Numbered from the stretch's first letter, positions 2,677 to 24,139 are shown. The stretch is 32,000 nucleotides of DNA from Candidatus Electrothrix sp. GW3-4 (GCF_037902255.1 NZ_CP147990.1:3510001-3542000), one strand, 5' to 3'. The notes: a model not told the origin generated them from the sequence alone. A program made the numbers and translations.

Positions 2677-3579
2677 TTAGGCAAATTCAAGGATCACCTG
2701 ATCAACGGTCAGGCAATCTCCCAGGTGAGCAGCAATACTTGCTATCTTGCCATCTGCTGGTGCCCGGAGGACGTTTTCCATCTTCATAGCCTCAATGACC
2801 GCCAGTTCCTGGCCAACCTTGACCTCCTGCCCGGCCTGGACAGCAAGTTTCACCAGCAGGCCCGGCATGGGGGCAAGGAGAAATTTGGACAGATCGACAT
2901 CTCCCTTGATGGGCATAATCCGATACAGCTCAGCCACTCTCGGGGGCATCACCAAGGCATCGATTCGTAATCCACGATAGAGGATGGTATAACCGAGCCC
3001 TTGCCTGCTGACCTGGAGACAGAAGCGCTGATTATTGATGGTACCATGGAAGACCTTCTGGGAAAACTGCCAGTCTGTCTTCACCCGATAGTTCTTGCCC
3101 TTATAATCCACCCGATATCCGCAATCCGCCTGAAAGGGTTTCACAGAAAGGGGCTTATGGATGTCTCCAATGATCACGACCCAGGAATCGCCCACCCGGC
3201 GTTCATGGCCAGCCATTTGACCACTGATCTTGGCGGCCCTGTCCATGTACAGGCGGTGGATAATACCTGCCACCACAATGGGAACATCCGGATCATCCAC
3301 CTTGATCGCAGTATCACGGAAGCCCTGGCCAAATTCCTCATCAATAAACCCTGTGGAAAGCTCCCCCTGTTGGAACCTGGGGTGGGCAACCAAGGCGGAC
3401 AGAAAGTTGATGTTGGTAGACAGGCCCCGAATAACGTACTCGTCCAGGGCATCCTGCATAGCCGCGATCGCCTCATCCCGGCCCTCCCCCTTGGTCACCA
3501 GTTTGGAAATCAGGGGATCATAATAGACCGAGATTTCACTCCCCTCAACCACCCCGCTGTCCAGGCGAACCGTTTCCAT
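2677..3579 (-). CDS. Acetyl/propionyl-CoA carboxylase alpha subunit, C-terminal part (BC C-terminal region + biotinyl carrier domain); 3' portion of a frameshifted gene
   Basis: The track ORF reads [29 protein letters not shown]...[30 protein letters not shown] and ends with the biotin attachment motif EAMKMEN. It overlaps, and continues in the -1 frame, the ORF 3510..4670. Confidence 0.85.
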
Positions 3580-4670
3580 ATCTTCATAGGGCGGTTGATA
3601 CAGGGTAATTCGGCCAGTGGACGGAAAAAATCACGAACCGGATCTTCCGCATAGACCCGGCACTCAAGGGCCCACCCCTTGAGCTGGATATCTTCCTGGC
3701 CCATGGGCAGGGGCTCGCCTGCGGCAACCCGGATCATCAGCTCCACCAAGTCATAGCCGGTCACCATCTCGGTTATCGGATGCTCCACCTGAAGACGGGT
3801 ATTCATCTCCAGAAAATAAAAATTCTGCTCCTGGTCGACAATACATTCCACAGTCCCGGCAGAGGTATACTGCACGGCCCTGGCCAACATGACGGCCTGT
3901 TCTCCCATCTGATGACGGGTCTCTGGAGTAAGAAAGGGCGACGGGGCCTCTTCAATGACCTTTTGGTGGCGCCGTTGCAGGGAACATTCCCGCTCACCAA
4001 GGTAGACCACATTGCCGTGCTGATCCGCCATCACCTGGATCTCGATATGACGAGGCTGCTCAATATATTTTTCAATCAGGATACGGTCATCGCCAAAGCT
4101 GGACAGGGCCTCACCAGCTGCCCGCTCAAATCCGTCCCGGCATTCCTGTTCATTGCGGGCAATCCGCATCCCCTTGCCTCCGCCCCCGGCACTTGCCTTG
4201 AGCATGACCGGGTAGCCGATCTCAGCCGCCTTTTCCACGGCCTGATCAGCATGTTCCAGGATACCGTCATAACCAGGTATGGTATTGACCCCTGCCTGTT
4301 CTGCAATCTGCTTGGAGGTGATCTTATCCCCCATACTGGTGATAGCCCCGACCGGCGGCCCTATAAAAACGATCCCCTCTTCTCCCAAGCGCTGGCAGAA
4401 GGTGTCATTTTCAGAGAGAAAACCGTATCCTGGATGCACAGCCTCGGCACCGGTGCGTTGACAGGCAACAATGATCTTTTCAACGTCCAGGTAGCTCTTT
4501 GTGGGCGCTGACGCGCCTATATTGACGGCCTCATCAGCCATCCGAACATGAAGGGCAGATCGATCAGCATCGGAAAATACAGCAACAGTTTTGATGCCCA
4601 TTGCCCGTGCTGTCCTCATGATCCGACAGGCAATTTCACCCCGATTTGCTATAAGAATTTTATTAAACAT
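3510..4670 (-). CDS. Acetyl/propionyl-CoA carboxylase alpha subunit, N-terminal part (biotin carboxylase ATP-grasp); 5' portion of a frameshifted gene
   Basis: [49 protein letters not shown]..., [12 protein letters not shown] and [14 protein letters not shown] are classic biotin carboxylase motifs. Homology is lost after ...[12 protein letters not shown] at the T6 run (A6 at 3625-3630 on the + strand). Confidence 0.9.
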
Positions 4671-9092: not shown

Positions 9093-9178
9093 GCCGAAGT
9101 GGTGGAATTGGTAGACACGCTATCTTGAGGGGGTAGTGGGTTACGCCCGTGCCGGTTCGACTCCGGCCTTCGGCACCA
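9093..9178 (+). tRNA. leuU: tRNA-Leu (anticodon GAG), CCA encoded
   Basis: The acceptor stem is GCCGAAG/CTTCGGC. The anticodon loop is TTGAGGG within stem CTATC/GGTAG. A long variable arm and T-loop GGTTCGACTCC are present. The 5' half is nearly identical to my recollection of E. coli leuU, which also follows secG. Confidence 0.95.
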
Positions 9179-9247: not shown

Positions 9248-9312
9248 CTTGTATCTTACCTTCCTGATATGATCCCCCTGAAACCGTATCCTCCTTATGC
9301 CCTTTCACATGG

Positions 9313-9573
9313 CTAACGCTGCTGATCCGCGAACCTTCCGCAGATCATAGCGAGGCATTCGAGGATTTCTTGATCATCCGTGCGGCGGCGATAGAAAATC
9401 GTGCCCCGTGTCTCCGTAAAGGTTTTACCGCACCTCCGGCACTTATAACGCTGGCACCCAGAGCGGGTGTGGCCGAATTTCACAATATTGTTTCTGCTCT
9501 CCTGTACCTGTTCATAATCGGGACAAACGGGCTTAGGACAAAAAGTGCCAACCTTTGCAAGTTCAGCCATCAC
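9313..9573 (-). CDS. Transposase N-terminal zinc-ribbon fragment (IS1-like/other IS family), truncated
   Basis: 86 aa. FCPKPVCPDY...VKFGHTRSGCQRYKCRRCGKTFTETRGTIFYRRR is a CxxC...CxxC zinc ribbon plus the start of an HTH, as in the N-termini of several transposase families. The ORF stops before any catalytic domain. It has a strong SD (aaggaggg) and lies next to a tRNA. Confidence 0.5.
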   Translation of the reverse strand: MMAELAKVGTFCPKPVCPDYEQVQESRNNIVKFGHTRSGCQRYKCRRCGKTFTETRGTIFYRRRTDDQEILECLAMICGRFADQQR

Positions 9574-10123
9574 TCCCTCCTTTCAGTAGTAACTATCTCA
9601 TATACTGAAAGATAAGCATCCGAAAGGGCAATGACAACACTCAGCAGGGTGACCATCTAATACTACTCACTCCCCTTTTCCTCATCTATTTTTCCCCATT
9701 ATGTCTGTCTTACCAACCTGACGTACTCAGCAAAATGGGATATGATATAAGTGAAGGCAGCTGAAACTAATATCCTCCTTTTTGTCATGATATTTCCTTC
9801 AGTCTCAGCTGCCTTCATTTTCTTGCAAGTAACAGCCCATCAGATCAGCCAATGATTCAACTTTCTCACTCCTGATTAACTTTTTTTCTTTGCCTTCTAT
9901 TTTGTCTTACAGATGTTGAAGCGTCTTTTATGGTCAAAGGAGGATCGTGAAAAAGGTCTGTTTGGGGGCGTAAGGAGGGAGTTTTTTTTGCAAATGGTGC
10001 GAATCAGACGGTTTGAATCCGTCTAAAAGGGGCTATTGTGGGGGGGGCATCCTGCATTGAGATTATGATGTATTTTCGGTAATCCATCTCAGCATCATGA
10101 CCTCGTTGCAGGACTATGGGCAT

Positions 10124-10552
10124 TTAATCACCTGCTGTATCCCCCACTATGTGCTGATGAACAAAGAATTGCCAACCGACAGAACTCTCTGGAATTTTAA
10201 ATCCAATGTCCATCCGGGTATCTTTTTTCATTATCCATCGAGGGTATGCAGATACCATACAATTTTTTCCCGTTCGGCTCGACGAATTTAGGGTATTAGC
10301 ATCATTGTTGACTATCCTCGTGGAAATTATAATTTTGCACTTTCTAAGACGCCAAATCGTAGGGCTAAAAAATACGGAAAGATTTGGCCAAAAAATTGAC
10401 TGCGAACTTATTGAAGGAAAATTTACCCGAAAGCCTTCGTAGGATACATCTGTCAGCTTCCCCTTATAGTAACAACCATTATCCACAAATACAGCGGTGT
10501 CTCCCAGCAAATTTACTCTCTTCAATCTGCGTTTATCAACTTGTACATACAT
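10124..10552 (-). CDS. PilZ domain protein (putative c-di-GMP receptor)
   Basis: Both halves of the PilZ binding motif are present with normal spacing: RRLKR (RxxxR, residues 8-12) and DVSYEG (DxSxxG, residues 35-40). SD AGGAGG sits 7 nt upstream of the ATG. The C-terminal half has no recognisable features. Confidence 0.55.
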   Translation of the reverse strand: MYVQVDKRRLKRVNLLGDTAVFVDNGCYYKGKLTDVSYEGFRVNFPSISSQSIFWPNLSVFFSPTIWRLRKCKIIISTRIVNNDANTLNSSSRTGKNCMVSAYPRWIMKKDTRMDIGFKIPESSVGWQFFVHQHIVGDTAGD

Positions 10553-10752
10553 ATCGGCTCCTCCTGGCGATAATTATTCTTATTAGAGAATAACACAGAC
10601 ATTAATAAAGCACAATATTGTATGCAGGGTTAAATGTTGAGTTTTTCTTTCGTCAATGGATTGCTTTGAACCGATTTAAAACACCCTGGATGACGAAAAA
10701 ACGACTAAATAGCCCTCCTCTACCAGCCTGTCACCTGGTATTGCTCAATACA

Positions 10753-10779
10753 AGGGGCAACGGCGCGCCGTGCCCCTAC
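10753..10779 (-). repeat. REP-like GTAG palindrome, third copy
   Basis: The minus strand reads gtaggggcacggcgcgccgttgcccct. It closely matches the unit at 6438-6465 (GTAGGG.CACGGC..GCCGTG.CCC). Confidence 0.6.
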
Positions 10780-11127
10780 CTCACTCAAAATAATGGGTAA
10801 AATATTTCCTATTGAATCCCTCACTGTTTTTGTATCTGCCTTACCATTGCAATAAACCCCTTGGTTTACAGCTTGTTCCGGCATAAGATAGAGCCATGTT
10901 ACTTAGAAGAAGCACTTTTGTTCATCAGTTGCCAAATCAAATTCTAGCAACTGCCAAGTCTTTACCTGCCTACACCATCCCCCGTCCTTTCTTCACGGCC
11001 TGTCCAAGTCAGGACATTTTCCCGGTGAAATGAGTTTTCCACCTTATTGCCTAGTCAGCATAAAACATGCTACAGTAATACAATTTAAAAAAACATAACA
11101 CTGAAACATCAAACGATAAGGCAAACT

Positions 11128-11409
11128 ATGAATAGAGATAATCTCTTGAATTGTTGGCAGTTCAAAAAATGTGGCAGGGAACCGGGTGGAAAGAACGCTG
11201 TAAATGATGGCGTTTGCTCGGTTGCTCTTGACATAGGAGCGGATGGTGTACATAACGGCACAAATGGTGGCCGCTGCTGCTGGGTTATAACCAATTCTGC
11301 TTACCAGGGAGACAGAGATGGCTTTTGCCTAGAAAAAAGCCGAAAATGCAGAGAATGTGATTTTTACCTTTTTATTAAAAAGTCAGAAAAACTATTTTTT
11401 GCGGCATGA
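11128..11409 (+). CDS. Two-CW domain small cysteine-rich protein (standalone)
   Basis: 93 aa. NCWQFKKCGREPGGKNAVNDGVCSVA...GTNGGRCCWVIT...CLEKSRKCRECDFY matches the recalled two-CW pattern (CW.FK.CGREPGG ... GVC ... NGG..CW ... C..C.FY). That pattern is usually found as an N-terminal module of sensor kinases. Confidence 0.65.
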   Translation: MNRDNLLNCWQFKKCGREPGGKNAVNDGVCSVALDIGADGVHNGTNGGRCCWVITNSAYQGDRDGFCLEKSRKCRECDFYLFIKKSEKLFFAA

Positions 11410-11410
11410 T

Positions 11411-11511
11411 TGATGGTTTCGTAAAAAGTCCAATTTTGCGAAAAATCGTATTGTAACTCATTGAGTTGCCGTTAGCGAATTGCTGTTTTCTGACTTTTTA
11501 CCAGGCCATCA
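11411..11511. repeat. Large imperfect inverted repeat / structured element directly 3' of the two-CW gene
   Basis: The left arm is tgatggtttcgtaaaaagtc (11411-11430). The reverse complement of the right arm gactttttaccaggccatca (11492-11511) is tgatggcctggtaaaaagtc, giving 17/20 matches. The 61-nt interior contains a small ATTTT-GCGA-AAAAT hairpin. Confidence 0.45.
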
Positions 11512-13514: not shown

Positions 13515-13853
13515 CTAACACTCATCTTCCCCGGTCAGACGACCTTCTGGAGTCAGACTGACGGATACATATGCTATGTTTTCCACATCTTCGGAAGACC
13601 CTAGACTTGTGTATGTCACATTGACAAGCCCTTCGTCCTTCATGGTATCCAGCTGTTGTTTTAAGTCTGATCGTTCCGCTGGATTCTCAGGCCATTCTAG
13701 CCCCTGCCCATCTATCAGCTCTCGTAAAATAGTACATTCGTCATTCTTCATACCAATCCCATTACCTGAATTCTCTGGACGTCGGATAACAGATGTTATC
13801 CTGACCTCTTTCCTATCAGGGAGAGCCACGAAGAAAGCCCACGGATCCTCCAC
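13515..13853 (-). CDS. Hypothetical protein
   Basis: 112-aa ORF with ordinary composition, co-oriented downstream of the ABC ATPase. The opposite-strand ORF is Ser-rich junk. No motif was recognised, and the start could be the internal MKNDEC. Confidence 0.3.
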   Translation of the reverse strand: MEDPWAFFVALPDRKEVRITSVIRRPENSGNGIGMKNDECTILRELIDGQGLEWPENPAERSDLKQQLDTMKDEGLVNVTYTSLGSSEDVENIAYVSVSLTPEGRLTGEDEC

Positions 13854-13933
13854 GCTGAGCCCATCTCACGGTCTCCCCTCCTCACAAGTCATTTTCTTGA
13901 AGAGATATTCCCACCGCAACAAAGGCTAACATA

Positions 13934-15079
13934 CTATGAATTATTCTGCAAAGGGGCTACCGCCACCCCGCTCTTATCAAAAAAGCAGGCTGCGCCCAGA
14001 TCGACATGCAGGACAATATCTTCACCAACCGCGCAAGTGAGCTGCTGAAAAATTCGGGCAGTGAAGGTCTGCTCAGGGATATCCAATTCGGTTACAAACG
14101 GACCGGCTGGCTGAAAACGGATCAGGGTTTCATAGCCAAGGAATTCCCCATCAACTACCTGGCAGGGCAGAGACAGGCTATTCTCCTGTCCCTGCGCAGA
14201 TAAACTGAATGCTTCCGGCCGGAGACCAAGCCAGATATCCTCATTCTGAGGGAGTTCTGCCAGCCGCGTCCGCATCTCTTCCGGCAAGAGCCAGCGGACC
14301 GGCTCCTGTTCCAGGGGCAGGATCAGCTCATTTCCGGAAACCCGGCAGGGGATGATGTTCATACCCGGACTGCCGATGAACTGGGCGATAAAGATATTAG
14401 CTGGCCGGGAGTACAGTTCATCCGGCGGGGCCACCTGCTGGAGGATGCCGTCTTTGAGCACCGCGACCCGCTGCCCCAGGGTCATGGCCTCGACCTGATC
14501 ATGGGTGACATAAACCGTGGTCACACCGAGCTGCCGCTGAATCGTGGCGATCTCCGAGCGGATCTGGACCCGGAGTTTGGCATCCAGGTTGGAGAGCGGT
14601 TCATCCATGAGAAAGACCTGCGGCTCCCGCACCAAGGCCCGGCCCATGGCCACCCGCTGCCGCTGCCCGCCGGAGAGCTGTTTGGGTTTCTTGTCCAGCA
14701 GAGGAGTAATGTCCAGCTGTTCGGCCACGGTTTCCACCTGCCTCGTGATGTCCTGGACAGACATTTTCTGCATCCGCAAAGGGAAGGACATATTATCGCG
14801 CACGCTCATGTGCGGATACAGGGCGTAATTCTGGAAGACCATGGCGATATTGCGCTGCTGGGGCGGCAGATTATTCACCCGCCTGCCGTTGATCGATATC
14901 TCGCCGTCGGTGATGGATTCCAGCCCGGCAATGGTGCGCAGCAGGGTGGACTTGCCGCATCCAGACGGGCCGACAAAGACCATCAGCTCGCCGTCTTTGA
15001 TCTCCAGATTGATATGATCCAGGATGTTCTGCTTTTTATCGTAAGATTTGATCAGTTCTTTGATTGCAACATCTGCCAT
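13934..15079 (-). CDS. Carbohydrate ABC transporter ATP-binding protein (MalK/UgpC-like)
   Basis: 381 aa. Walker A GPSGCGKST, Q-loop, signature LSGGQRQRVAMGRAL, Walker B FLMDEPLSNLD and an H-loop are present, plus a C-terminal MalK-type regulatory/TOBE region. Confidence 0.95.
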   Translation of the reverse strand: MADVAIKELIKSYDKKQNILDHINLEIKDGELMVFVGPSGCGKSTLLRTIAGLESITDGEISINGRRVNNLPPQQRNIAMVFQNYALYPHMSVRDNMSFPLRMQKMSVQDITRQVETVAEQLDITPLLDKKPKQLSGGQRQRVAMGRALVREPQVFLMDEPLSNLDAKLRVQIRSEIATIQRQLGVTTVYVTHDQVEAMTLGQRVAVLKDGILQQVAPPDELYSRPANIFIAQFIGSPGMNIIPCRVSGNELILPLEQEPVRWLLPEEMRTRLAELPQNEDIWLGLRPEAFSLSAQGQENSLSLPCQVVDGEFLGYETLIRFQPAGPFVTELDIPEQTFTARIFQQLTCAVGEDIVLHVDLGAACFFDKSGVAVAPLQNNS

Positions 15080-15114: not shown

Positions 15115-15930
15115 TTATCCTTTGGTGCCGGTGGCCGCGATGCCTGCGACAAACCAGCGTTGAAAGAGGAGAAAAATCACCATGACCGGTGCCACCATCA
15201 TCACGCCGAAGGCCATGATGTCGCCCCATTGCAGAGGCGGCAGGGTCTGAAACTGGGCCACGGCCACGGGTAGAGGCCGGACCCGTTCGCCGCTGGTCAC
15301 CATGAGCGGCCAGAGAAAGGTGCCCCACTGCATGAGAAAGGTGAGGATGGTGACGCTGGCAAAGGCGGGCTTGCTGTTGGGCAGGATCAGGGAGGTGAAA
15401 ATGCGGAAGGTGCCTGCACCGTCCACCCGGGCCGCCTCTTCAAACTCCTTGGGCAGGCCGATAAAAAAGGTGTAAAAGAGATAGATGGAAAAGGCGTTGG
15501 CGACAAAGGGCAGGATCTGGACCAGATAGCTGTCCCGCCAGCCTAAATAGCTCATCTGGTAAAACATGGGCACGGCAATGGCCTCAAAGGGGATGATCAT
15601 CAGGGCCAGGACCAGGCCGAACAGGGCCTTATGGCCGAACCAGTGCAGGCGGGCAAAGGCGTATCCGGCCAGGGAGTTGACGACCAGGCCCAGCAGAACC
15701 ACGGACAGGGTAATGAACAGGGAGTTGAACAGGTAGCGGCCAAAGCTGACCCGTGCGAACACGTCTGCGTAGTTCTGCCAGCTCAGGTCGGCGGCAAAGA
15801 AGCGTCCGCTGGTCAGGCCGACCAGCACCTCGTTGTCCGGCTTAAAGCTGGAATAGACCATGAACAGGATCGGTGCGGCATAGAGCAGCGCGGCTGCGGT
15901 GATAAAGAGGGTGAGGAGTATTTTTCGCAT
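15115..15930 (-). CDS. Carbohydrate ABC transporter permease (MalG/UgpE-like)
   Basis: 271 aa with six TM segments. The EAA loop reads EFEEAARVDGAGTFRIFTSLILPNSKPA. Confidence 0.93.
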   Translation of the reverse strand: MRKILLTLFITAAALLYAAPILFMVYSSFKPDNEVLVGLTSGRFFAADLSWQNYADVFARVSFGRYLFNSLFITLSVVLLGLVVNSLAGYAFARLHWFGHKALFGLVLALMIIPFEAIAVPMFYQMSYLGWRDSYLVQILPFVANAFSIYLFYTFFIGLPKEFEEAARVDGAGTFRIFTSLILPNSKPAFASVTILTFLMQWGTFLWPLMVTSGERVRPLPVAVAQFQTLPPLQWGDIMAFGVMMVAPVMVIFLLFQRWFVAGIAATGTKG

Positions 15931-16003
15931 GGTATTTGGTACGGGTTGATTGATTGTTTTTGACGAGGTTCCTTGTTACGGTGCGCTTACAGGAACAGGA
16001 AAA

Positions 16004-16948
16004 TCAGCCTCCACCACCACCGCAGCATCCGCCTCCTCCCCCGGAACTGCCGCCGCCGAAGCCTCCTCCGCCAGCATAGCCGCTTCCGGTGTAACCGCTA
16101 CTGCTGCTTCCTCCACTGCTGCTTCCTCCGCCACCACCTTTGCTGATCAAAAAGATAACGAAGCCGATGATGATAAGTATGCAAACGCCACCGAATGCTT
16201 CTCCTGCGTCGCTATCAGAGCGTTTTGCATTCCGGTGTTTTGATACAGCAGCTTTCTTTTTTCCATTAGTAATTTCAGCTTGCTGCCATCCCGGCATTGA
16301 AATATTCAAAACATCGTGCGGAAAAACAACCTGCACCTCCAGCTCCTTGCCCGGCGGCATCGCATCTTTTGCAACAAACTCAACCGTCTGCTCATCAGCT
16401 TGCCGAGCCTCGGCAGGCACACCGAAGCTCTTAAAGCTGCTGATCTTTCCAGCCAAGGCATCCGGCAGGCACACGGTGACTTTGCCGCTGTGAATCGGTG
16501 CGGAGCGGTCTTTGAAGATGGCTTTGACGTATACCCAATCATCTTCACCATGAACTTGGATGCCACCAATGATCCGATATTTGAGTACAAAGGTATGACT
16601 TTCCGGCGGGTTCAGCTCATGCCGCCATTTGACCCACCGCTGCCCATTTTTGATATTTGTTGTAATTGGGAGCTTCTCGCCGTCCTCAAAAACCTCGAAA
16701 TAACCAACGCCATCCGTTTTGTCCAACGGAATATAGCGATAGCGTTCGTTGGTATGCGGCCCGGTGAAAACGTATTTCTGGGTCTCGGTGACCAGCATGT
16801 CGCCGTTTGCCTGCACATCAATCAGCACATTGATGAAATCCCAGTAAAAGGGCGGGGATTTCGCCGATGCTGTTTGAGTATTCAGTAAAAATACAGCAAG
16901 TACGATCACCTGAACAGAGACTGCAAGCAGTTGTCTGAGGCACTTCAT
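16004..16948 (-). CDS. DUF2207-like exo-domain protein, paralog A (signal peptide + ~200-aa domain + TM anchor + Gly/Ser/Tyr tail ending GGGGGCCGGGGG)
   Basis: 314 aa with SD aggaggaatc. The Sec signal is MKCLRQLLAVSVQVIVLAVFLLNTQTASA. FYWDFINVLIDVQANGDMLVTETQKYVFTG....ERYRYIPL matches the recalled N-terminal pattern of DUF2207 (PF09972). The TM is VCILIIIGFVIFLI, and the Gly-rich C-terminus is typical of DUF2207 ends. Confidence 0.75.
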   Translation of the reverse strand: MKCLRQLLAVSVQVIVLAVFLLNTQTASAKSPPFYWDFINVLIDVQANGDMLVTETQKYVFTGPHTNERYRYIPLDKTDGVGYFEVFEDGEKLPITTNIKNGQRWVKWRHELNPPESHTFVLKYRIIGGIQVHGEDDWVYVKAIFKDRSAPIHSGKVTVCLPDALAGKISSFKSFGVPAEARQADEQTVEFVAKDAMPPGKELEVQVVFPHDVLNISMPGWQQAEITNGKKKAAVSKHRNAKRSDSDAGEAFGGVCILIIIGFVIFLISKGGGGGSSSGGSSSSGYTGSGYAGGGGFGGGSSGGGGGCCGGGGG

Positions 16949-17010
16949 GATTCCTCCTATGTTTTTGCTTTTCAGAAAGATACGTTGACAGATTTCATGT
17001 TGAGATATTC

Positions 17011-17039
17011 TTGCAAAAAGTTCACATTTCAGCTAACAT
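17011..17039 (+). promoter_or_regulatory. Sigma70-like promoter candidate for the toxin-antitoxin pair (possibly leaderless transcript)
   Basis: TTGCAA (17011-17016), a 17-nt spacer, then TAACAT (17034-17039). The ATG at 17046 is only 6 nt after the -10 element, and no SD is present. Confidence 0.4.
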
Positions 17040-17045
17040 CTAGAC

Positions 17046-17393
17046 ATGCGACAGATACTATTTTTCCGAAATCAGTCAGGCAGATCACCTGTTGAAAATT
17101 TTCTACACACGTTAACGCCGCAACAAAAGAAAAAAGCAGCGTTTGTTCTGGCTCTGGTTCAGGAACTGCCAGTTGTTCCCAAGGAATATTTCAAAAAGCT
17201 CAAGGGCTGCGACGACCTTTGGGAAGTCAGAATCAAATCCGGCAATAACGCCTTTCGTCTGCTGGGATTTTTTGACGGTACAAAACTCATCGTGCTGAAC
17301 CATGCTTTTGCCAAAAAAACGCAGAAGACCCCGAAAAAAGAAATCCTTGTAGCGGAACAGCGCAAAAAAGAATATTTGAGGTTCAAACAATGA
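17046..17393 (+). CDS. Type II toxin, RelE/ParE superfamily (Gp49/HigB-like, DUF891-type)
   Basis: 115 aa. F.NQSGRSPVENFL..L.PQQKKK....L..L...P.....YFKKLKG.DDLWEVRIKSGNNAFRLLGFFDG.KLIVLNHAF.KKTQKTPKKEI is the recalled Gp49-like toxin pattern. It has an ATGA overlap with the downstream HTH gene. Confidence 0.85.
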   Translation: MRQILFFRNQSGRSPVENFLHTLTPQQKKKAAFVLALVQELPVVPKEYFKKLKGCDDLWEVRIKSGNNAFRLLGFFDGTKLIVLNHAFAKKTQKTPKKEILVAEQRKKEYLRFKQ

Positions 17394-17665
17394 GTGACGT
17401 AACACAATTTATTCATGACTGCAAACAGCGGCATCCTGATGAATTTAAAAATTTTGATAAAGAATACGAAACATTCAAGCTTGGTGTCCTTTTGAAGCAG
17501 GCCCGCAGCGAAGCCGGGCTGACCCAGGAAGAAGTTGCCCGGCGTCTGAAAACAACCAAATCCGCAATATCCAGAATGGAAAACCATGCGAATGATATCC
17601 GCTTATCCACTCTGGAAAAGTTTGCCACTGCTGTCGGCAGACAGCTTTCCGTTGCCTTGAAGTAA
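17390..17665 (+). CDS. XRE-family HTH antitoxin (HigA-like)
   Basis: 91 aa. LKQARSEAGLTQEEVARRLKTTKSAISRMENHANDIRLSTLEKFATAVGRQL is a canonical HTH_3 domain, translationally coupled to the toxin. Confidence 0.9.
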   Translation: MSDVTQFIHDCKQRHPDEFKNFDKEYETFKLGVLLKQARSEAGLTQEEVARRLKTTKSAISRMENHANDIRLSTLEKFATAVGRQLSVALK

Positions 17666-17774
17666 ATCCCCCCTCCTACGCTTTGGGTTCCAGGCTTTCC
17701 CTCTCCCTCGCCTCACCCTCAATAGCCGCGGATAAAGGGTGCGGTGAGGAGTCGTTCGGTATCCGGCTCACGTC

Positions 17775-18731
17775 TCAACCGCCACCACCACCGCAGCATC
17801 CACCACCTCCACCGGAACTGCCGCCCCCGAAACCTCCGCCGCCAGAATAGCCGCTTCCGGTGTAACCGCTACTTCCTCCGCTGCCACCACCACCTCCGCG
17901 AAATATTTTTCCACAAAGCATCGGAATTCCAAAAAATAATGCAATAGGAGCTGCCACCTTAATAAAAGCTAATAGAAAATACCAAATGTCTTGCCAGCTT
18001 AATTTGTGGGAATTGGCAGCCTGTATCTGTTCCGCTCTCTTTTTCCAATAAGCAGGGTCTCTTTTTGGCTGTTCAGGCTCTGGAATCTGAATCACCCCAT
18101 GCGGAACAGCAACCCGTACCTCCAGCTCCTGCCCCGGCGGCAGAGTACCTTTTGCGACAAACTCAACCGTCTGTTCATCAACCTGCCGGGCCTCGGCAGG
18201 TACGCCGAAGCTCTTGAAGCTGCTGATCTTTCCAGACAGTGAATCCGGCAGGCGTACGGTCACTTTGCCGCTCTCAATCGGTGCGGAGCGGTCTTTGAAG
18301 ATGGCTTTGACGTACACCCAATCTTCTTCGCCATGAACTTGGATACCACCTTTAACTCGATATTTCAGCACAAAGGTATGGCTTTCCGGCGGGTTCAGCT
18401 CGTGCCGCCATTTAACCCACCGCTGCCCGTTCTTGATATTTGTACTGAACGGAAGTTTCTCTTCGCCTTCATAGACTTCGATCTGATCAATGCCGTCCAC
18501 TTTATCCAGCGGAATATAGCGGTATCGTTCATTGGTATGCGGCCCGGTGAAAACGTATTTCTGGGTTTCGGTAATCAGCATGTCACCGTTCTGCTGCACA
18601 TCAATCAGTACATTGATGAAATCCCAGTAAAAGGGCGGAGATTTCGCCGATGCTGTTTGAGTATTCAGTAAAAATACTGCAAGTACGATTGCCCGGACAG
18701 ACACTGCGAGCAGTTGTCTGAGGCACTTCAT
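17775..18731 (-). CDS. DUF2207-like exo-domain protein, paralog B (signal peptide + domain + TM + Gly tail ending GGGGGCCGGGGG)
   Basis: The start was moved to MKCLRQ (18731), which has a perfect SD (aaggaggaacc) and matches the paralog starts. The track ORF extends 19 codons further upstream without support. The protein is highly similar to paralog A over its whole length. Confidence 0.75.
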   Translation of the reverse strand: MKCLRQLLAVSVRAIVLAVFLLNTQTASAKSPPFYWDFINVLIDVQQNGDMLITETQKYVFTGPHTNERYRYIPLDKVDGIDQIEVYEGEEKLPFSTNIKNGQRWVKWRHELNPPESHTFVLKYRVKGGIQVHGEEDWVYVKAIFKDRSAPIESGKVTVRLPDSLSGKISSFKSFGVPAEARQVDEQTVEFVAKGTLPPGQELEVRVAVPHGVIQIPEPEQPKRDPAYWKKRAEQIQAANSHKLSWQDIWYFLLAFIKVAAPIALFFGIPMLCGKIFRGGGGGSGGSSGYTGSGYSGGGGFGGGSSGGGGGCCGGGGG

Positions 18732-18820
18732 GGTTCCTCCTTTATTATAAAATGCATGCTGTTGGTTGATAGAAACAATCAGCTCCATCTGCTAGAGAAA
18801 TATCCTCATGTTTCAACCTG

Positions 18821-20098
18821 CTATTCCCACCTTTTTCTTTTCCAATGCGTCTCCCTCTTTCTTTGCCATTGAGGTTTCGATACTTCAAGCGCATCATGCG
18901 GAAGGGTAATTCGAATATTAAGAGCATGTTTTGGCGGCACTATTCGCTGTGAGACCAACTCCACCGTACGCTCATCGCTCTTCCAATATTCCATACCAGG
19001 ACTCTTAACACTAAGAATCTTTCCAATAAACGAATCCGGCAAACGAATTGTTACTTTGCTTTTCTGAACGGGAATAGGATGCTTTCCCGAAATAGGAGTC
19101 ACCAAAAGCACATCTTCCTTTTCCTGAAAAAGTAAACTCCCCATAATGCGATATTTAAGATTGAAAGTATGAGTATCAGGCGGATCCATATTGTGTAACC
19201 AGCTAATTACAAAGCGATTATCTTGCGTCTTTATTTTTACAGGCAGCTCATCATCACCTTCACAAACTTCAATCTGATCAACGCGGTCCGCTGTTTCCAG
19301 CGAGAAATAACGATATCGCTCGTTCCTGTATAATCCACTAAAAACGTACTTTCTGGTTTCATCCACCAACATATCACCGTTTTTCTGCACATCAACAAGC
19401 ATCTTCTGCTCATCAATAGACACATTGGTGACATCCCAATAGACTTGTGGAAAAAAAATCTGCACCCCTAACTCCTGGTCCGGGGATAATGGCCCTTTTG
19501 AAATAATCTCTATCGTTCTCTCATCAAGTTTTTGAGTATCAGTTGGTACACCGAACGATTTAAAATCTTCTATTTTTTCCCTCAGGAAATCTGGTAGCCG
19601 TATTGTCACTTTGCCGCTCTGAACGGGTGCTGCGCGATTTCCCAGAATAGCTCTTAATGATAGAAAATCTTTTCCTTTATATGCCTGAACAACCCCCTTA
19701 TACGCCTGTATACCATCCACGATCCGATACTTGAGGACAAAAGTACGACTCTCCGGTGGATTCAGTGTGTGTTGCCATGTGATCCTCTGTTGATTATTTA
19801 TGATATCCGTGCTGATCAGAATTTTTTCTTCCTCTTCAAAAACTTCAATCTGATCAACATGGTCCACATCCTGCAACGGAATATACCGAGATCGCTCATT
19901 GCTGCACAGCCCGGTGAAGACATACTTCTGCGTCTCGGTCACCAGCATGTCACCGTTTTGCTGGACATCAATCAGCACATTGATGAAGTCCCAGTAAAAG
20001 GGCGGTGATTTCGCCGATGCTGTTTGAGTATTCAGTAAAAATAATCCAAGTACGATTGCCTGGACAGAGACTGTAAACACTTGTCTGAGGCACTTCAT
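18821..20098 (-). CDS. DUF2207-like exo-domain protein, paralog C (two tandem domain copies, no TM anchor or Gly tail)
   Basis: 425 aa. The first ~70 aa are near-identical to A/B. A second domain copy begins VYWDVTNVSIDEQKMLVDVQKNGDMLVDETRKYVFSG.YRNERYRYF. The protein ends in a basic stretch, QWQRKRETHWKRKRWE. Confidence 0.7.
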   Translation of the reverse strand: MKCLRQVFTVSVQAIVLGLFLLNTQTASAKSPPFYWDFINVLIDVQQNGDMLVTETQKYVFTGLCSNERSRYIPLQDVDHVDQIEVFEEEEKILISTDIINNQQRITWQHTLNPPESRTFVLKYRIVDGIQAYKGVVQAYKGKDFLSLRAILGNRAAPVQSGKVTIRLPDFLREKIEDFKSFGVPTDTQKLDERTIEIISKGPLSPDQELGVQIFFPQVYWDVTNVSIDEQKMLVDVQKNGDMLVDETRKYVFSGLYRNERYRYFSLETADRVDQIEVCEGDDELPVKIKTQDNRFVISWLHNMDPPDTHTFNLKYRIMGSLLFQEKEDVLLVTPISGKHPIPVQKSKVTIRLPDSFIGKILSVKSPGMEYWKSDERTVELVSQRIVPPKHALNIRITLPHDALEVSKPQWQRKRETHWKRKRWE

Positions 20099-20121
20099 GG
20101 TTCCTCCTTTCTTGTTGGTTG

Positions 20122-20346
20122 TCAGAAAGATGCGTTGATCAGGTTCAGTCGCCGTACCTCTACGGAACTACCGCCTTCGACCTCCCCTGCGCCGACCCAG
20201 CCATCGTCTATACCCCCCTCCGCAACTGCCTCTATAGTAGTTCCCTCTGCCCCGTCGAAAGAAGCCTTTATACAGGCCGGAAAAAAGAAATATAAAAAAA
20301 CTATGATGAAGCCAACGATGAAAAATGTAAACACTCCGAAGCTCAT
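20122..20346 (-). CDS. Small single-TM ORF of uncertain frame (possible decayed TM+tail module)
   Basis: 74 aa. The hydrophobic start FGVFTFFIVGFIIVFLYFFF is followed by an acidic tail. An alternative frame after the T6 run gives an Arg/Gly/Tyr tail. It sits between the membrane-module gene and paralog C. Confidence 0.3.
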   Translation of the reverse strand: MSFGVFTFFIVGFIIVFLYFFFPACIKASFDGAEGTTIEAVAEGGIDDGWVGAGEVEGGSSVEVRRLNLINASF

Positions 20347-20377
20347 TTTTTCTATGACTCTCCCTCGTTATTGCTTT

Positions 20378-21658
20378 TCAATTGTATGCGACTGTAAGTA
20401 AATGATCAGCCACCACCTCCTCCCCTCCACCGCCACCACCACCACCGCCACCGCCGCCACCTCCACCACCACCTTCTCCGCCAGCTCCACCACCATGACT
20501 TATATTGTCGTCTGTAAAACCAAATGCTTTTTCTATCAGTTCAAAGAAACGCTCTGTATGCCCTGTAATAGGAGTAAAAACAGCATCACCGGAAATGTCG
20601 TGCAGACGAATCCAGTCTGGTATTATTGCTTGATTTCTATAATTATATTCATTTTGATGAATCCATTCTGATCCTTTTCCTAACGCAATTGCATAAGGCA
20701 GGTATTTATAAAATTCTTCAGTTTTTTTTGTTGGTGAGAGGTTATTGACAAACCTCCGCCATTTTGCTCTTTTAATCATTCCTATCTTGGTTGGTTGAAT
20801 CCTTCCAAGGCGTTTAAACTGTTTTTCACAATAAATAAAGACAGGGGTGATAGAACACAAAAGAAAGCCTATGGTTACAGCCCCTGTTGTATAATGATAA
20901 TTATCACCAGAATAAGAAGTAAAGATTTCACCTTTACCCCAGATAATTATTTCCGAACCAAAAAGAATTAAACCTAATCCGCCAAACAGAAAAAAAATTG
21001 CTAGGAACATCAGTCTAATGTTACGAGATCGGTCTTTCTTTATAGCTGGAATATCCTTTCGCAGGAGATCTTTTTTTTCTAAAAATAAGAAGATATCGTG
21101 TTCCACTTTATTTGTAATCGATTTCAAATTTAAAGAGGAAAGATTTGTTTTAGAAGAAGGCAATGATTCTAAAATTTTCTTTTCCCATAATATATCCGAA
21201 GTATCTTTTTTAGTAGAAAGGTAGTAATCATATCTTTTGAAAAAAAATCCTCTTCTTTCATGAATATCGATTTGCAGCAGTCCTTTGTTGCACATTTCAA
21301 TAGTCAAAGATCTTACTGTTTTCTTGCTGATCTCAACAATTTCCAGCAAGGAAACCGCTGCCGCTGGCAAATCATCTGGTGGATCGTTTTCTTGAAGTAA
21401 ACTTTCATAGCAAAGTGAAGCAGTATCTTCACTTTTTTCTGCTTCTCGAATAAATCGAGCTGTCAATATCCAGCCTAATATAAAACAAAGACAACCAGTT
21501 AGGATGATTGAGCCTGCTAGAGGCATATCGAACAAGCTGGAGACTACTGCGGGCAAAAACGGCGCGGCACAAAGCAGCGCGACGATAACGATAAAGAGTG
21601 TGGAAAATATTTTTTCGCCTAGTGTAACGCCGAATTGATCTTTCTGATTTTTATTCAT
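20378..21658 (-). CDS. DUF2207-like membrane module protein (central/C-terminal half: N-terminal TM helices, cytoplasmic region, further TM helices, 17-Gly run)
   Basis: 426 aa. DPPDDLPAAAVSLLE...KGLLQI......YDYYL, later YLPYAIALGKGSEW and the terminal poly-Gly match my recollection of the post-TM part of DUF2207 proteins. It has no exo-domain. The gene is AT-rich with no obvious SD, so the start is uncertain. Confidence 0.6.
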   Translation of the reverse strand: MNKNQKDQFGVTLGEKIFSTLFIVIVALLCAAPFLPAVVSSLFDMPLAGSIILTGCLCFILGWILTARFIREAEKSEDTASLCYESLLQENDPPDDLPAAAVSLLEIVEISKKTVRSLTIEMCNKGLLQIDIHERRGFFFKRYDYYLSTKKDTSDILWEKKILESLPSSKTNLSSLNLKSITNKVEHDIFLFLEKKDLLRKDIPAIKKDRSRNIRLMFLAIFFLFGGLGLILFGSEIIIWGKGEIFTSYSGDNYHYTTGAVTIGFLLCSITPVFIYCEKQFKRLGRIQPTKIGMIKRAKWRRFVNNLSPTKKTEEFYKYLPYAIALGKGSEWIHQNEYNYRNQAIIPDWIRLHDISGDAVFTPITGHTERFFELIEKAFGFTDDNISHGGGAGGEGGGGGGGGGGGGGGGGGEEVVADHLLTVAYN

Positions 21659-21898
21659 TTTTACATTAACATGTCAAGAAGTTGTCGGTGTCATGTTCCA
21701 GCTTTCAACAGGGGGATGCCTGCTCCTGCTATTTGTGGTTATCAGAATTGCCGAATGAGATGTGTTGATTATAAATTCGATGATAAAAACTCAGCCGCCC
21801 CCGTCCCCGTCCCCGCCTCCTTTATTACTGATGATGGCAAAAATAATTTCAGCAACTTTTGAATCCTGAGAAGTTAATTGCCCGAACTAAAAGGGTCG

Positions 21899-22792
21899 TT
21901 ACCCCACCCTCCGATCCTCGCTCACCATCCGCCGCTGAAAAAAGGTCAGGCAGAGGACGATAATGAAAAAGACCACGGTCATGGCGGAACCACGGGCAAT
22001 CTGCTGGCGTTCAAAAGCAGCACGCACCGCCTCGAAGACCACAGTGGCGGTGGCATTCAGCGGGCCGCCCTTAGTCATGATCTGGACCTGATCAAAGAGC
22101 CGGAAGGAGAGGATGGTAGTCACCGAGACCACGAACAGGGTGGTGTTGCGCAGGCAGGGAAAGGTGACATGCCAGAACTGCTGCCAGGAATTGGCCCCGT
22201 CCAGCCGGGCCGCCTCGTAGAGTTCTTCTGAAATATCCTGGAGTCCGGCAAGATAGACGATCATCTGGAACCCGGCCCCCTGCCAGATAGAGACCACCAT
22301 GATCGCGGGCAGGGCAAGGAATTGGTTATGGAGGAAATCCTGCGGCTCCCAGATCCCGAAGGTCAGCAGCTCAAGCACAGAGTTAATCACCCCGTTCGGA
22401 CCGGGCGCGTAAAGGAGCATCCAGACCACGGAGATCAGGGCGAAAGGGAAGATCACCGGCAGGAAAAACAGGGTGCGGAAGACCACCATGCCGGGCAGCT
22501 TGCGGTTCACCAGCAGGGCAAGAAGCAGGGCGCAGCCGGTCTGGGCTGGCACCACGACCACGGCAAAGATCAGGTTATTGAGCAGTGCCCGGAGAAAAAC
22601 AGGGTCTTGGAGGATGCGGGCGTAATGCTGCAGGCCGACAAAGGTCAGCGGCAAAGGCGAGGCCAATTTCAGATTGGTGAAGGAAAGGATCAGGGCCAGG
22701 AGAAAGGGCAGGCCGATAAAAAGGCCCAGACCGGTGAGTGCCGGGGTGGCCATGAGCCAGCCCACCCGGTTGTCGTTGTGCAAGCTGTTCAT
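21899..22792 (-). CDS. Carbohydrate ABC transporter permease (MalF/UgpA-like)
   Basis: 297 aa with six TM segments. The EAA loop reads ELYEAARLDGANSWQQFWHVTFPCLRN. Confidence 0.93.
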   Translation of the reverse strand: MNSLHNDNRVGWLMATPALTGLGLFIGLPFLLALILSFTNLKLASPLPLTFVGLQHYARILQDPVFLRALLNNLIFAVVVVPAQTGCALLLALLVNRKLPGMVVFRTLFFLPVIFPFALISVVWMLLYAPGPNGVINSVLELLTFGIWEPQDFLHNQFLALPAIMVVSIWQGAGFQMIVYLAGLQDISEELYEAARLDGANSWQQFWHVTFPCLRNTTLFVVSVTTILSFRLFDQVQIMTKGGPLNATATVVFEAVRAAFERQQIARGSAMTVVFFIIVLCLTFFQRRMVSEDRRVG

Positions 22793-22828: not shown

Positions 22829-24139
22829 TCAGGAACGGGGAACAGAACGATAGCCTTCACTGTCGGTAATATCCTGCTCAATGGCGGCGGCAGCCTGGTG
22901 TAGGGCTTTCTGCACATCGGCGCCGTTGCGGATTTCGTCAAAGGCCTGCTGAAAGACCGAGGTGATGACCTGATAGGCCGGGGTGCGGGGCCGCTCCACG
23001 CTGCTCTGCCGGAGCTGATCCACAAAAAGTCGGAGCGGGCCGCCTTCCCTGTACAAGGGCGAGCGGGCAATGGCGGTCTTGGTTGCAGGTACGGCCCCGT
23101 TGACCTCGGTCATGGCCAGAATATTTTCCGGGCGAAGCAGAAAAGCGAGGAACTGGCCTGCGGCCTCGGGATGGCGGGTATCCGCGTTGATCCCCCATTG
23201 CCAGGAACCTTGGCCGGTCTTTGAACCTTGCCCGAAATCCGGCAGAGGCAGAAGCACCAGCTTGTCGCCCAGTGCCTTTGCGTAGCGGGGATATTCCCAA
23301 TGCCCCACCCAGGAAAGCGCGACCCGCTCTTCGACAAAGGCGGCATCATCCAGGTTCGGATCAACAGAGCCCTGTTGAAACCAATCCCGCAGGGTTGTCA
23401 TGGCATTGACCGCCTCTTTTCCGGCCAGCACCGGCTCTGCATGGAGATAATCCTGTCGGTCGATCAGATCACCACCGGCAGACTGAATAATCGGGGAAAA
23501 GGCATAGGTGAACCACTCGCCCCGGTAATTGGCCTTGAGATCCAGCACAGCCCCGTCCTGATCCTGAGCAGCCAGCTTGTTCAGCACCTGATTGAACTCC
23601 GCCTCTGTCCAGGCATCATCCACTGAAGCGGGAATGCGGACACCTGCCGCCTCCAGCAGGGCTTTGTTGCCGTACATGCCCAGGCCGGAGTCAAACATCC
23701 CCACGGCAAAGAGCTGATCGTGCATGGTGCCCTGTTTGATGATGGACGGCAGGAGATCGGCCTGCACCGCCGCAGGCAGGAGATTATCCAGGGGCTGGAG
23801 CTGATTCTGCCAGACATAGCCGTACAGGAACGGCCCGTCAAATTCGATCACATCCGGCAGGTCATGGGAAAGGGCGGCAGACTGGAGCTGGGAGTTGTAC
23901 GAACCTTCCGGTAGCAGGGTGAGTTCAACGTGGACATCAGGAAATTCTTCGTTAAAACGTTGCACCTGATCCATGAGCACTTTGCGCTCGCCCTCCTGAC
24001 CGCTGTGGGCCCAGACTGTGATCAGTTGCTTATTTGACTCTGCTTCGGGTGTGCAACCTAAAAGGATTGTGCTAAAGAACAGGAGAATAAATAGGTAACC
24101 GGAATGAAGGGAGGACGTTTTTTTATAGCGCATAAGCAT
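22829..24139 (-). CDS. ABC transporter extracellular solute-binding lipoprotein (family 1, sugar-type)
   Basis: 436 aa. It has a lipobox ILLGC after a hydrophobic leader and an SBP_bac_1-like pattern (ITVWAHSGQEGE...). It lies 36 nt upstream of the MalF-like permease. Confidence 0.92.
   Translation of the reverse strand: MLMRYKKTSSLHSGYLFILLFFSTILLGCTPEAESNKQLITVWAHSGQEGERKVLMDQVQRFNEEFPDVHVELTLLPEGSYNSQLQSAALSHDLPDVIEFDGPFLYGYVWQNQLQPLDNLLPAAVQADLLPSIIKQGTMHDQLFAVGMFDSGLGMYGNKALLEAAGVRIPASVDDAWTEAEFNQVLNKLAAQDQDGAVLDLKANYRGEWFTYAFSPIIQSAGGDLIDRQDYLHAEPVLAGKEAVNAMTTLRDWFQQGSVDPNLDDAAFVEERVALSWVGHWEYPRYAKALGDKLVLLPLPDFGQGSKTGQGSWQWGINADTRHPEAAGQFLAFLLRPENILAMTEVNGAVPATKTAIARSPLYREGGPLRLFVDQLRQSSVERPRTPAYQVITSVFQQAFDEIRNGADVQKALHQAAAAIEQDITDSEGYRSVPRS

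Follow-up and report, generated by a model that had tools for sequence, protein, structure and literature searches.

Why are the two permease genes of a sugar ABC importer held apart by 6 kb of unrelated genes, when in CUT1 importers (MalFGK2/UgpAEC/GgtBCD type), which have the same gene set, they normally lie together? The question is raised by a 32,000-nucleotide (nt) window of Candidatus Electrothrix sp. GW3-4 (GCF_037902255.1, NZ_CP147990.1:3510001-3542000), in which positions 15931-21898, between a MalF-type and a MalG-type permease gene, carry genes of the DUF2207 type and a toxin-antitoxin (TA) pair. A preliminary description of the window had proposed that this block was inserted into a once-contiguous operon and that its DUF2207 architecture, divided among separate genes, had no described counterpart. 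Our analysis favors, at a probability of roughly 0.65, a layered and Electrothrix-specific insertion in the operon of a CUT1 sugar or compatible-solute importer, in which the proteins with DUF2207 N-terminal domains (exo proteins) would serve in envelope maintenance or stress and the protein with the C-terminal part (DUF2207_C) would be optional. The arrangement is unusual but not fundamentally new. Its unusual part is the stable genus-wide nesting of exo genes between the permease genes of a strongly conserved importer operon, at a site that is an accretion point for tail-bearing membrane proteins.

The evidence comes from a comparison of 80 loci encoding relatives of the MalF-type permease, in which the operon genes were placed by tblastn. 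In roughly 70 non-Electrothrix genomes, including Chromatiales, Thiodiazotropha, Desulfobacterota, Anaerolineae, and Thermotogota, one permease gene lies next to the other, ~50-110 bp away, versus 5,968 bp in GW3-4. This adjacency indicates that the separation is derived and that the block is an insertion, as had been proposed. The loci nearest to the window all belong to Electrothrix, marine cable bacteria. In all six of the other Electrothrix loci (L002 to L006 and L082), one or more exo-domain genes directly follow the MalF-type gene, and in all four that reach MalG the exo genes lie between both permease genes, before a spacer of 66-73 nt. A single insertion into a recently contiguous operon is contradicted by these six loci. 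Whether the cluster is widespread in relatives thus has a divided answer: exo nesting is genus-wide, which tells in part against the insertion as first described, whereas the ~70 relatives outside the genus have adjacent permease genes. The other Electrothrix loci are arranged as follows.

L003, Electrothrix (E.) gigas: after MalF one exo gene, then MalG
L005, E. marina: after MalF a 425-amino acid (aa) two-domain gene and a one-domain gene, then MalG
L082, Rat3: after MalF, arrangement as in L005
L006, S24.Bin023: after MalF two small membrane proteins that bear the tail, debris of mobile elements, the remnant of a TA pair and a single exo gene, followed by MalG
L004, uncultured Electrothrix: after MalF a 488-aa two-domain gene with anchor; the contig stops before MalG
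L002, YB6: after MalF an exo gene, a small protein with the tail and part of an exo gene, followed by an insertion sequence (IS); no malG or malK within 10 kb

In the window, the minus-strand order is solute-binding protein (SBP), MalF, a 426-aa open reading frame (ORF), a 74-aa ORF, ExoC, ExoB, ExoA, MalG, and ATPase, with a plus-strand gene pair between ExoB and ExoA. All of these ORFs are present where the preliminary description had placed them, and its domain guesses were right, i.e., Pfam finds PF09972 in the three exo paralogs, PF20990 in the 426-aa protein, and a Gp49 plus XRE pair. The features are listed below, with transmembrane segments abbreviated as TM, GC content as GC, and pairwise ratios of nonsynonymous to synonymous substitution as dN/dS.

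22829-24139, minus strand: SBP of the CUT1-type ABC importer (PF13416/PF01547, SBP_bac_1/8); 85-94% aa identity in other Electrothrix loci
21899-22792, minus strand: MalF-type permease (PF00528, BPD_transp_1); 88-97% aa identity; dN/dS 0.06
20140-21898, no strand assigned: AT-rich strain-specific segment comprising an intergenic leader, the DUF2207_C gene and a small ORF; GC 0.34; matched only by L001 (same strain)
20378-21658, minus strand: standalone DUF2207_C membrane protein, 426 aa (PF20990, E 1.3e-12, 48.4 bits)
20122-20346, minus strand: 74-aa ORF with one TM helix and a degenerate Gly-rich tail; no family match in Pfam or NCBIfam
18821-20098, minus strand: ExoC, with a Sec signal and two tandem PF09972 domains (E 3e-24, 86.6 bits, two stretches), lacking a TM anchor or tail
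17775-18731, minus strand: ExoB, with a signal peptide, one PF09972 beta-sandwich (E 1.8e-16, 61.3 bits), a TM anchor and a Gly/Ser/Tyr tail
17390-17665, plus strand: XRE/HigA-like antitoxin (HTH_31, E 1.1e-12; HTH_3)
17046-17393, plus strand: HigB/Gp49-like toxin (PF05973, E 2.2e-21)
16004-16948, minus strand: ExoA, with one PF09972 domain (E 3.7e-14, 53.7 bits), a TM anchor and the same tail as ExoB
15931-16003, minus strand: spacer from the last exo gene (ExoA) to malG; 66-73 nt in Electrothrix, conserved
15115-15930, minus strand: MalG-type permease (PF00528, BPD_transp_1); 98-99% aa identity across Electrothrix; dN/dS 0.03
13934-15079, minus strand: MalK/UgpC-type ATPase (NCBIfam NF008653, 440 bits)

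Nucleotide alignment resolves the block into layers. Window positions 24200-21901 and 16957-13915 match other species at 83-93% nt identity, the latter collinear with the E. marina and Rat3 loci, and blastn homology ends at the MalF stop codon (21900-21903, or 21872 in L006). Positions 20138-17775, carrying ExoC and ExoB, match the two exo genes of Rat3, and positions 21900-20140 match the same strain only. Three parts only are specific to GW3-4: the segment with DUF2207_C, the additional one-domain exo copy, and the TA pair in its intact form. Composition is mosaic, as first described: GC is 0.34 at 20501-21500 versus 0.59 in the permease genes, and GC at third codon positions (GC3) is 0.29 in the DUF2207_C gene, 0.43-0.53 in the exo genes, and 0.79-0.80 in the permease genes. 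Such a mosaic, the presence of a TA pair, and permease genes that adjoin each other outside Electrothrix would all fit a single recent insertion of a ~6-kb mobile element into a contiguous operon. However, other Electrothrix species share most of the block (20138-17775 and 16957-15931) in collinear order, so that the strain alone has no more than 21900-20140, and the block has none of the hallmarks of a mobile element: the Pfam scan found no integrase or transposase in it, bearing out the preliminary description, and no terminal repeats, direct or inverted flanking repeats, or target duplication were found at 15931 and 21898. We therefore regard such an event as very unlikely.

The junction between the two permease genes has received DNA elsewhere. 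In Chamaesiphon (L008 4046-5464; L009 9462-11470), unrelated genes were inserted independently at the same MalF/MalG junction, one of which we take, by eye, to encode a Uma2-family endonuclease; the junction thus tolerates cargo. Tandem repeats lie between MalF and the first exo gene in L003 (10923-11193, 42 nt in 6.5 copies) and L006 (5079-5220, 63 nt in 2.3 copies), and are absent from the window.

The exo paralogs have 74-84% nt identity over 300 nt and their tails are 91% identical, single-base homopolymer differences occur at two sites, and a carboxylase gene elsewhere in the window is frameshifted, all of which could suggest an assembly chimera across paralogs or a group of decaying, functionless pseudogenes. 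Against a chimera, two independent short-read (Logan) contigs match the window at 100% identity across the novel junctions. More specifically, L001 corresponds to 24200-20014 (SBP, MalF, DUF2207_C, small ORF, and start of ExoC), and L092 to 16865-18305 (start of ExoA, TA pair, and 3' part of ExoB). The same division of N and C domains into separate ORFs is seen in L001, which departs from the window only by single bases in a G-run and a T-run. Since the novel junctions are contained in these contigs and Rat3 and E. marina have the rest in collinear order, the block is not an assembly chimera. Against decay, the exo ORFs are intact in several species and have dN/dS values of 0.15-0.28. Chimera and decay together are left with hardly any probability.

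All three exo proteins exceed the PF09972 gathering score of 24.4 bits, and the description of three paralogs with one, one, and two domain copies is confirmed by Pfam and by their nt identity. ExoA is the copy collinear with the exo gene that precedes malG in other species, being 95% identical in aa to the E. marina copy (dN/dS 0.15). ExoB, which is 100% identical to the NCBI GW3-4 protein P0002 and ends in GGGGGCCGGGGG, is closest to the Rat3 allele (83-85%) and has dN/dS values of 0.18-0.20; both ExoA and ExoB map to the single one-domain gene of Rat3. ExoC has 425-aa orthologs in E. marina (80%) and Rat3 (79%), with dN/dS 0.28; this anchorless two-domain form, whose want of anchor and tail the preliminary description had implied, is kept at exactly 425 aa in three species and is predicted to be a soluble periplasmic protein. 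The exo genes are under purifying selection (dN/dS 0.15-0.28), compared with 0.03-0.13 for the transporter genes. Signal peptides and charge distribution point to a topology with the exo domains outside and the tails inside.

In the AlphaFold2 (AF2) model of ExoB (pLDDT 83), a signal helix is followed by a beta-sandwich (34-210), a short helix, a TM helix (246-266), and a disordered Gly-rich tail. In Foldseek, the nearest structure to the sandwich plus TM helix is the Ost1/ribophorin I subunit of eukaryotic oligosaccharyltransferase (E about 1e-8), the lumenal domain of which shares with the exo proteins both a beta-sandwich and the single TM helix that follows it; a similar sandwich forms the N-terminal domain of M1 aminopeptidases (LTA4H, ERAP1, and PepN). 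The resemblance is one of fold only, at E 8e-9 to 1e-6, TM-scores of 0.3-0.44, and 8-16% identity, and a profile search of the exo proteins against PDB sequences matched artificial Gly linkers only. Because the Ost1 and M1 N-domains are non-catalytic, it is most economical to suppose that the exo domain binds a partner or serves as a scaffold. To our knowledge, the resemblance of the DUF2207 N-domain to Ost1 has not been described.

The 426-aa protein covers positions 6-246 of the 247 of PF20990 and scores above its gathering score of 33 bits. Its AF2 model (pLDDT 78) has an N-terminal TM hairpin, a winged-helix-like domain assigned to the cytoplasm, two further TM helices, a helical C-terminal domain, and a poly-Gly tail at the C-terminus. 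A fold search of the model against the PDB returned nothing with E<0.1, and a profile search of PDB sequences again matched artificial Gly linkers only. As a word-indexed homolog search yielded one weak match, exhaustive HMMER and profile searches were then used; identity to its best relatives is ~30%, and the exhaustive HMMER search, which covered 1.84 billion representatives, gave no match with E<1e-30. The 1.76-kb AT-rich segment that carries the gene has no blastn homolog in other Electrothrix operons.

The two homopolymer differences both fall in this segment and affect how its genes are read. The 426-aa protein had been said to end in 17 consecutive Gly; the 17 Gly are there, whereas the end is not, since 14 further residues follow in the window, where the 17 Gly run on into EEVVADHLLTVAYN. 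L001 has one extra G at ~20421-20425, giving a protein of 417 aa that ends in 22 Gly. The true stop is likely at ~20406-20408, giving 417 aa, and the difference is probably a base-calling error or a variation in tract length in the window. Similarly, the T-run at ~20293-20300 has 8 T in L001 versus 7 in the window, and the L001 product would be 59 aa (TM plus Gly/Arg/Tyr). The 74-aa ORF lies where it had been described, but its standing as a gene is doubtful because its frame hangs on the length of this T-run; it is not called as a gene in L001, and it may be a remnant or a small protein of TM segment plus tail.

Another homopolymer may be involved elsewhere in the window, where the gene for the alpha subunit of a biotin-dependent acyl-CoA carboxylase is split into two overlapping ORFs in different frames (2677-3579 and 3510-4670, both minus strand). 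One of them carries Biotin_carb_N and ATP-grasp, and the other the remaining part of Biotin_carb_C together with PCC_BT and the biotinyl domain. The split is either a frameshift or another homopolymer error.

Do the exo proteins and the DUF2207_C protein form one system? No polypeptide in the window joins the N and C domains; they are encoded by separate ORFs, with stops and gaps between them. The two halves nevertheless belong to one clade of full-length DUF2207 proteins. P0124, a 691-aa full-length DUF2207 protein, has an N-domain 52% identical to ExoB (E 6e-66), and with its C-part it ranks third among the 1.84 billion representatives as a relative of the 426-aa protein; P0125 and P0126 have the same N+C fusion. 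Full-length DUF2207 proteins (PF09972 plus PF20990, e.g., Streptococcus mutans SMU.243) share with the window proteins the N and C families, an extracytoplasmic N-domain, TM segments, and a Gly/Ser-rich tail. They differ in that the window has the domains on separate genes, with the N-domain gene amplified (1+1+2), and these genes inside a transporter operon; their tails commonly end in ...GGGGW, whereas the Electrothrix tail ends in GGCCGGGGG.

Beyond the full-length forms, each half is found by itself, and the divided architecture is accordingly less singular than first described. More than 200 proteins have PF09972 only; their length is mostly 250-400 aa, and Microcoleus, Okeania, Dolichospermum, Scytonema, and Microcystis account for many of them, with identities of 45-60%. 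The cyanobacterial short forms (300-360 aa) have the same signal, domain, TM segment, and poly-Gly tail, often with Cys. In contrast to the Electrothrix proteins, many have two CxxC pairs before the tail, and their genes lie alone in unrelated contexts; in the three cyanobacterial contexts inspected, the exo-only gene had no ABC or DUF2207_C neighbor. Likewise, PF20990-only proteins of 320-550 aa are numerous in metagenomes; many of 320-410 aa have an N-terminal TM hairpin and some have poly-Gly tails, but they are only about 22-32% identical to the window protein and their contexts are unrelated, i.e., beside an IS or nested between pheS and pheT. This last arrangement, in an unrelated metagenomic lineage (L089 6001-7233, L090 3142-6489, and L091 6001-7551), is another case of a conserved gene pair split by a DUF2207_C gene.

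The halves also meet a second time within the genus. At a second YB6 locus (L083 7904-14366), unrelated to the importer operon, a DUF2207_C gene (433 aa, tail GGCCGGGGG) lies two genes upstream of an exo gene (342 aa), with a sulfotransferase-like gene between them and an M48 peptidase gene and then three AIM24 genes after the exo gene; pairing of the halves thus recurs. The YB6 C-module is not BLAST-detectably similar to that of the window. The C gene of the window also stands out by its foreign composition. In the window, the halves came together secondarily and not by fission in place.

These observations bear on the possibility that the C-module and the exo paralogs are obligate partners that together build, within the membrane, a counterpart of the full-length protein in which one exo subunit can replace another. 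The match of both halves to one full-length clade speaks for it, as do the co-orientation and adjacency of the genes, the recurrent pairing in YB6, and the GGCCGGGGG-type tail that the exo proteins share with the YB6 C-module. On the other side, none of the six other Electrothrix operons (six of seven in all) has the C gene, which means that exo genes need no such partner in cis; the gene has a foreign composition (GC3 0.29) and a BLAST-dissimilar counterpart in YB6; and exo-only genes stand alone in cyanobacteria, as C-only genes do elsewhere. Taking both sides together, we consider obligate partnership possible but unlikely.

Could the exo proteins instead belong to the importer? The CUT1-type gene set around the block is complete by Pfam and NCBIfam (SBP, two BPD_transp_1 proteins, and a UgpC/MalK-like ATPase). 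The spacer before malG has a mean column identity of 85% in an alignment of five Electrothrix loci, and the terminator scan found no terminator-like hairpin in it. Being short (66-73 nt), conserved, and devoid of a hairpin, the spacer leaves little room for a malG promoter of its own outside the exo gene. Over the window, the promoter scan gave fewer promoter-like sites than shuffled sequences, none of the 23 terminator-like sites of the terminator scan is a convincing intrinsic terminator on the coding strand, and an Rfam search found no RNA family. Genes for sucrose-phosphate synthase (SPS) and its phosphatase (SPP) lie upstream of the SBP gene in GW3-4. Sucrose synthesis was rejected as the conserved context of the transporter, since the other Electrothrix loci have no SPS/SPP matches upstream and their importers lack this neighborhood. 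In Rat3, the position directly upstream of the SBP gene, where GW3-4 has the sucrose genes, is held by a 400-aa TPM-domain membrane protein (L082 6190-7392) with four CxxC pairs and a Ser/Gly tail ending in GGGASGSW. DUF2207 genes are associated with LemA and TPM genes in their neighborhoods, which serves as a lead only; no LemA or TPM gene adjoining the DUF2207 genes was found among the window ORFs scanned.

If the exo proteins were accessory periplasmic components of the importer (e.g., a tethered co-receptor or scaffold), they would for that reason have been kept in its operon, in agreement with genus-wide nesting, purifying selection, the conserved malG spacer, and the TPM-domain membrane protein next to the Rat3 SBP gene. 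Yet close exo homologs occur with no ABC genes nearby, ~70 orthologous transporters work without exo proteins, copy number and domain number differ between species, and YB6 keeps exo genes though malG and malK are gone from the locus. We consider such an accessory role in the importer unlikely.

A further feature of the locus is its shared tail. A Gly/Ser-rich, low-complexity C-terminal tail is present in ExoA, ExoB, the C-module, and their relatives. A near-identical version (...GYxGGGGFGGGSSGGGGGCCGGGGG) ends the one-domain exo proteins of most Electrothrix species as well as the YB6 C-module. The same tail is found on unrelated small membrane proteins of 115, 118, and 247 aa in the inter-permease space (L002 12214-12561; L006 2657-3400 and 3458-3814), as ...GGGGFGGG(S/G)SGGGGGG(C/A)CGGGGG; these have no family match above threshold. 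Among 120 listed homologs, 31 have a Cys within the last 15 residues, 77 end in GG, and none ends in ...GGW, an ending common in other DUF2207 and TPM proteins. The GC-rich tail-coding sequence and the near-identical 5' ends of the paralogs would be recombination substrates that reshuffle the locus. One could go further and view the inter-permease space as a dedicated recombining cassette site for membrane proteins (exo proteins, C-modules, and small TM proteins) that share the tail ...GGGGFGGGSSGGGGGCCGGGGG, with the tail as a functional tag (e.g., a metal- or partner-binding cytoplasmic handle) and the periplasmic domains as partners co-expressed with the importer or as envelope components of the periplasm shared along cable-bacterium filaments; this is a speculative reading to which we assign a low probability.

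The TA pair is an ordinary cassette, opposite to the operon direction as had been described. As in HigB/HigA type II systems, the toxin gene comes first, the two genes overlap by 4 nt (17390-17393), and the families are PF05973 and HTH_3/31; nothing notable differs. A TA remnant lies at the equivalent place in L006, at 88% nt identity. PADLOC matched the TA proteins to generic models only and gave no defense-system match for the five DUF2207-type ORFs, and NCBIfam has no model for the DUF2207-type proteins.

The layered, Electrothrix-specific insertion that we favor can be set out as follows. An old layer consists of the short-form DUF2207 genes, placed after MalF in every Electrothrix sampled and before MalG wherever the contig reaches. 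Their products are predicted to have a cleavable Sec signal and one or two periplasmic PF09972 beta-sandwich domains; the one-domain forms add one TM anchor and a Gly-rich tail that is disordered, presumably lies in the cytoplasm, and ends in GGCCGGGGG. On this lie recent layers in GW3-4, i.e., a horizontally acquired AT-rich segment with a divergent standalone DUF2207_C gene, a second one-domain exo allele, and the HigB/HigA-type TA pair. The MalF-proximal side is the growth zone, and growth probably proceeds as the paralogs recombine within their 5' signal-peptide regions, which are near-identical, and within the GC-rich sequences that encode their tails. Judged by spacing and orientation, the exo genes would be read through with the transporter operon, and their products would display, on the periplasmic side of the inner membrane, domains that bind or act as scaffolds but are not enzymes. 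By analogy to SMU.243, the only studied protein in the DUF2207 literature, of which a mutant in S. mutans has stress-tolerance and biofilm defects for which no mechanism was given (PMC10457818), the exo proteins may act in envelope maintenance or stress. The DUF2207_C protein may associate with them as an optional add-on. No DUF2207 literature on cable bacteria was found, and searches on LemA/TPM/glycine-rich proteins and on Electrothrix with sucrose yielded nothing relevant.

Several points weigh against this explanation. Co-transcription is read from spacing and orientation only, and the fold match to Ost1 and M1 domains reaches only the TM-scores (0.3-0.44) and identities (8-16%) given above. 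The GC3 of the exo genes (0.43-0.53) is well below that of the permease genes (0.79-0.80), which one would not expect of genes resident for very long, unless strong codon selection acts on the permease genes or exo alleles are exchanged between species. Finally, the YB6 operon is broken after its exo genes, where a DDE transposase gene comes next after part of an exo gene (L002 12601-14837; transposase 13821-14837), so that the linkage is not obligatory.

Outside the operon, a tRNA-Leu(GAG) gene (9093-9178) follows secG and is itself followed by a low-GC stretch (9300-11500; 0.39-0.42), which contains an ORF for an IS1 InsA-like zinc finger (9313-9573) and otherwise short ORFs. This stretch may be the edge of a genomic island.

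Periplasmic and envelope proteins of cable bacteria are of special interest; a link of the exo proteins to conduction is unsupported, and we draw none because close homologs occur in cyanobacteria. The finding matters more for DUF2207 itself, a very widespread family of bacterial membrane proteins, for which the locus offers a handle on when its proteins are made and on whether their halves interact. It is a natural experiment, with the halves on separate genes and one half amplified and kept by the genus within an operon whose conditions of expression are open to study. It also illustrates that foreign genes between the permease genes of a transporter operon can be both tolerated and conserved, which calls for caution when function is predicted from operon membership.

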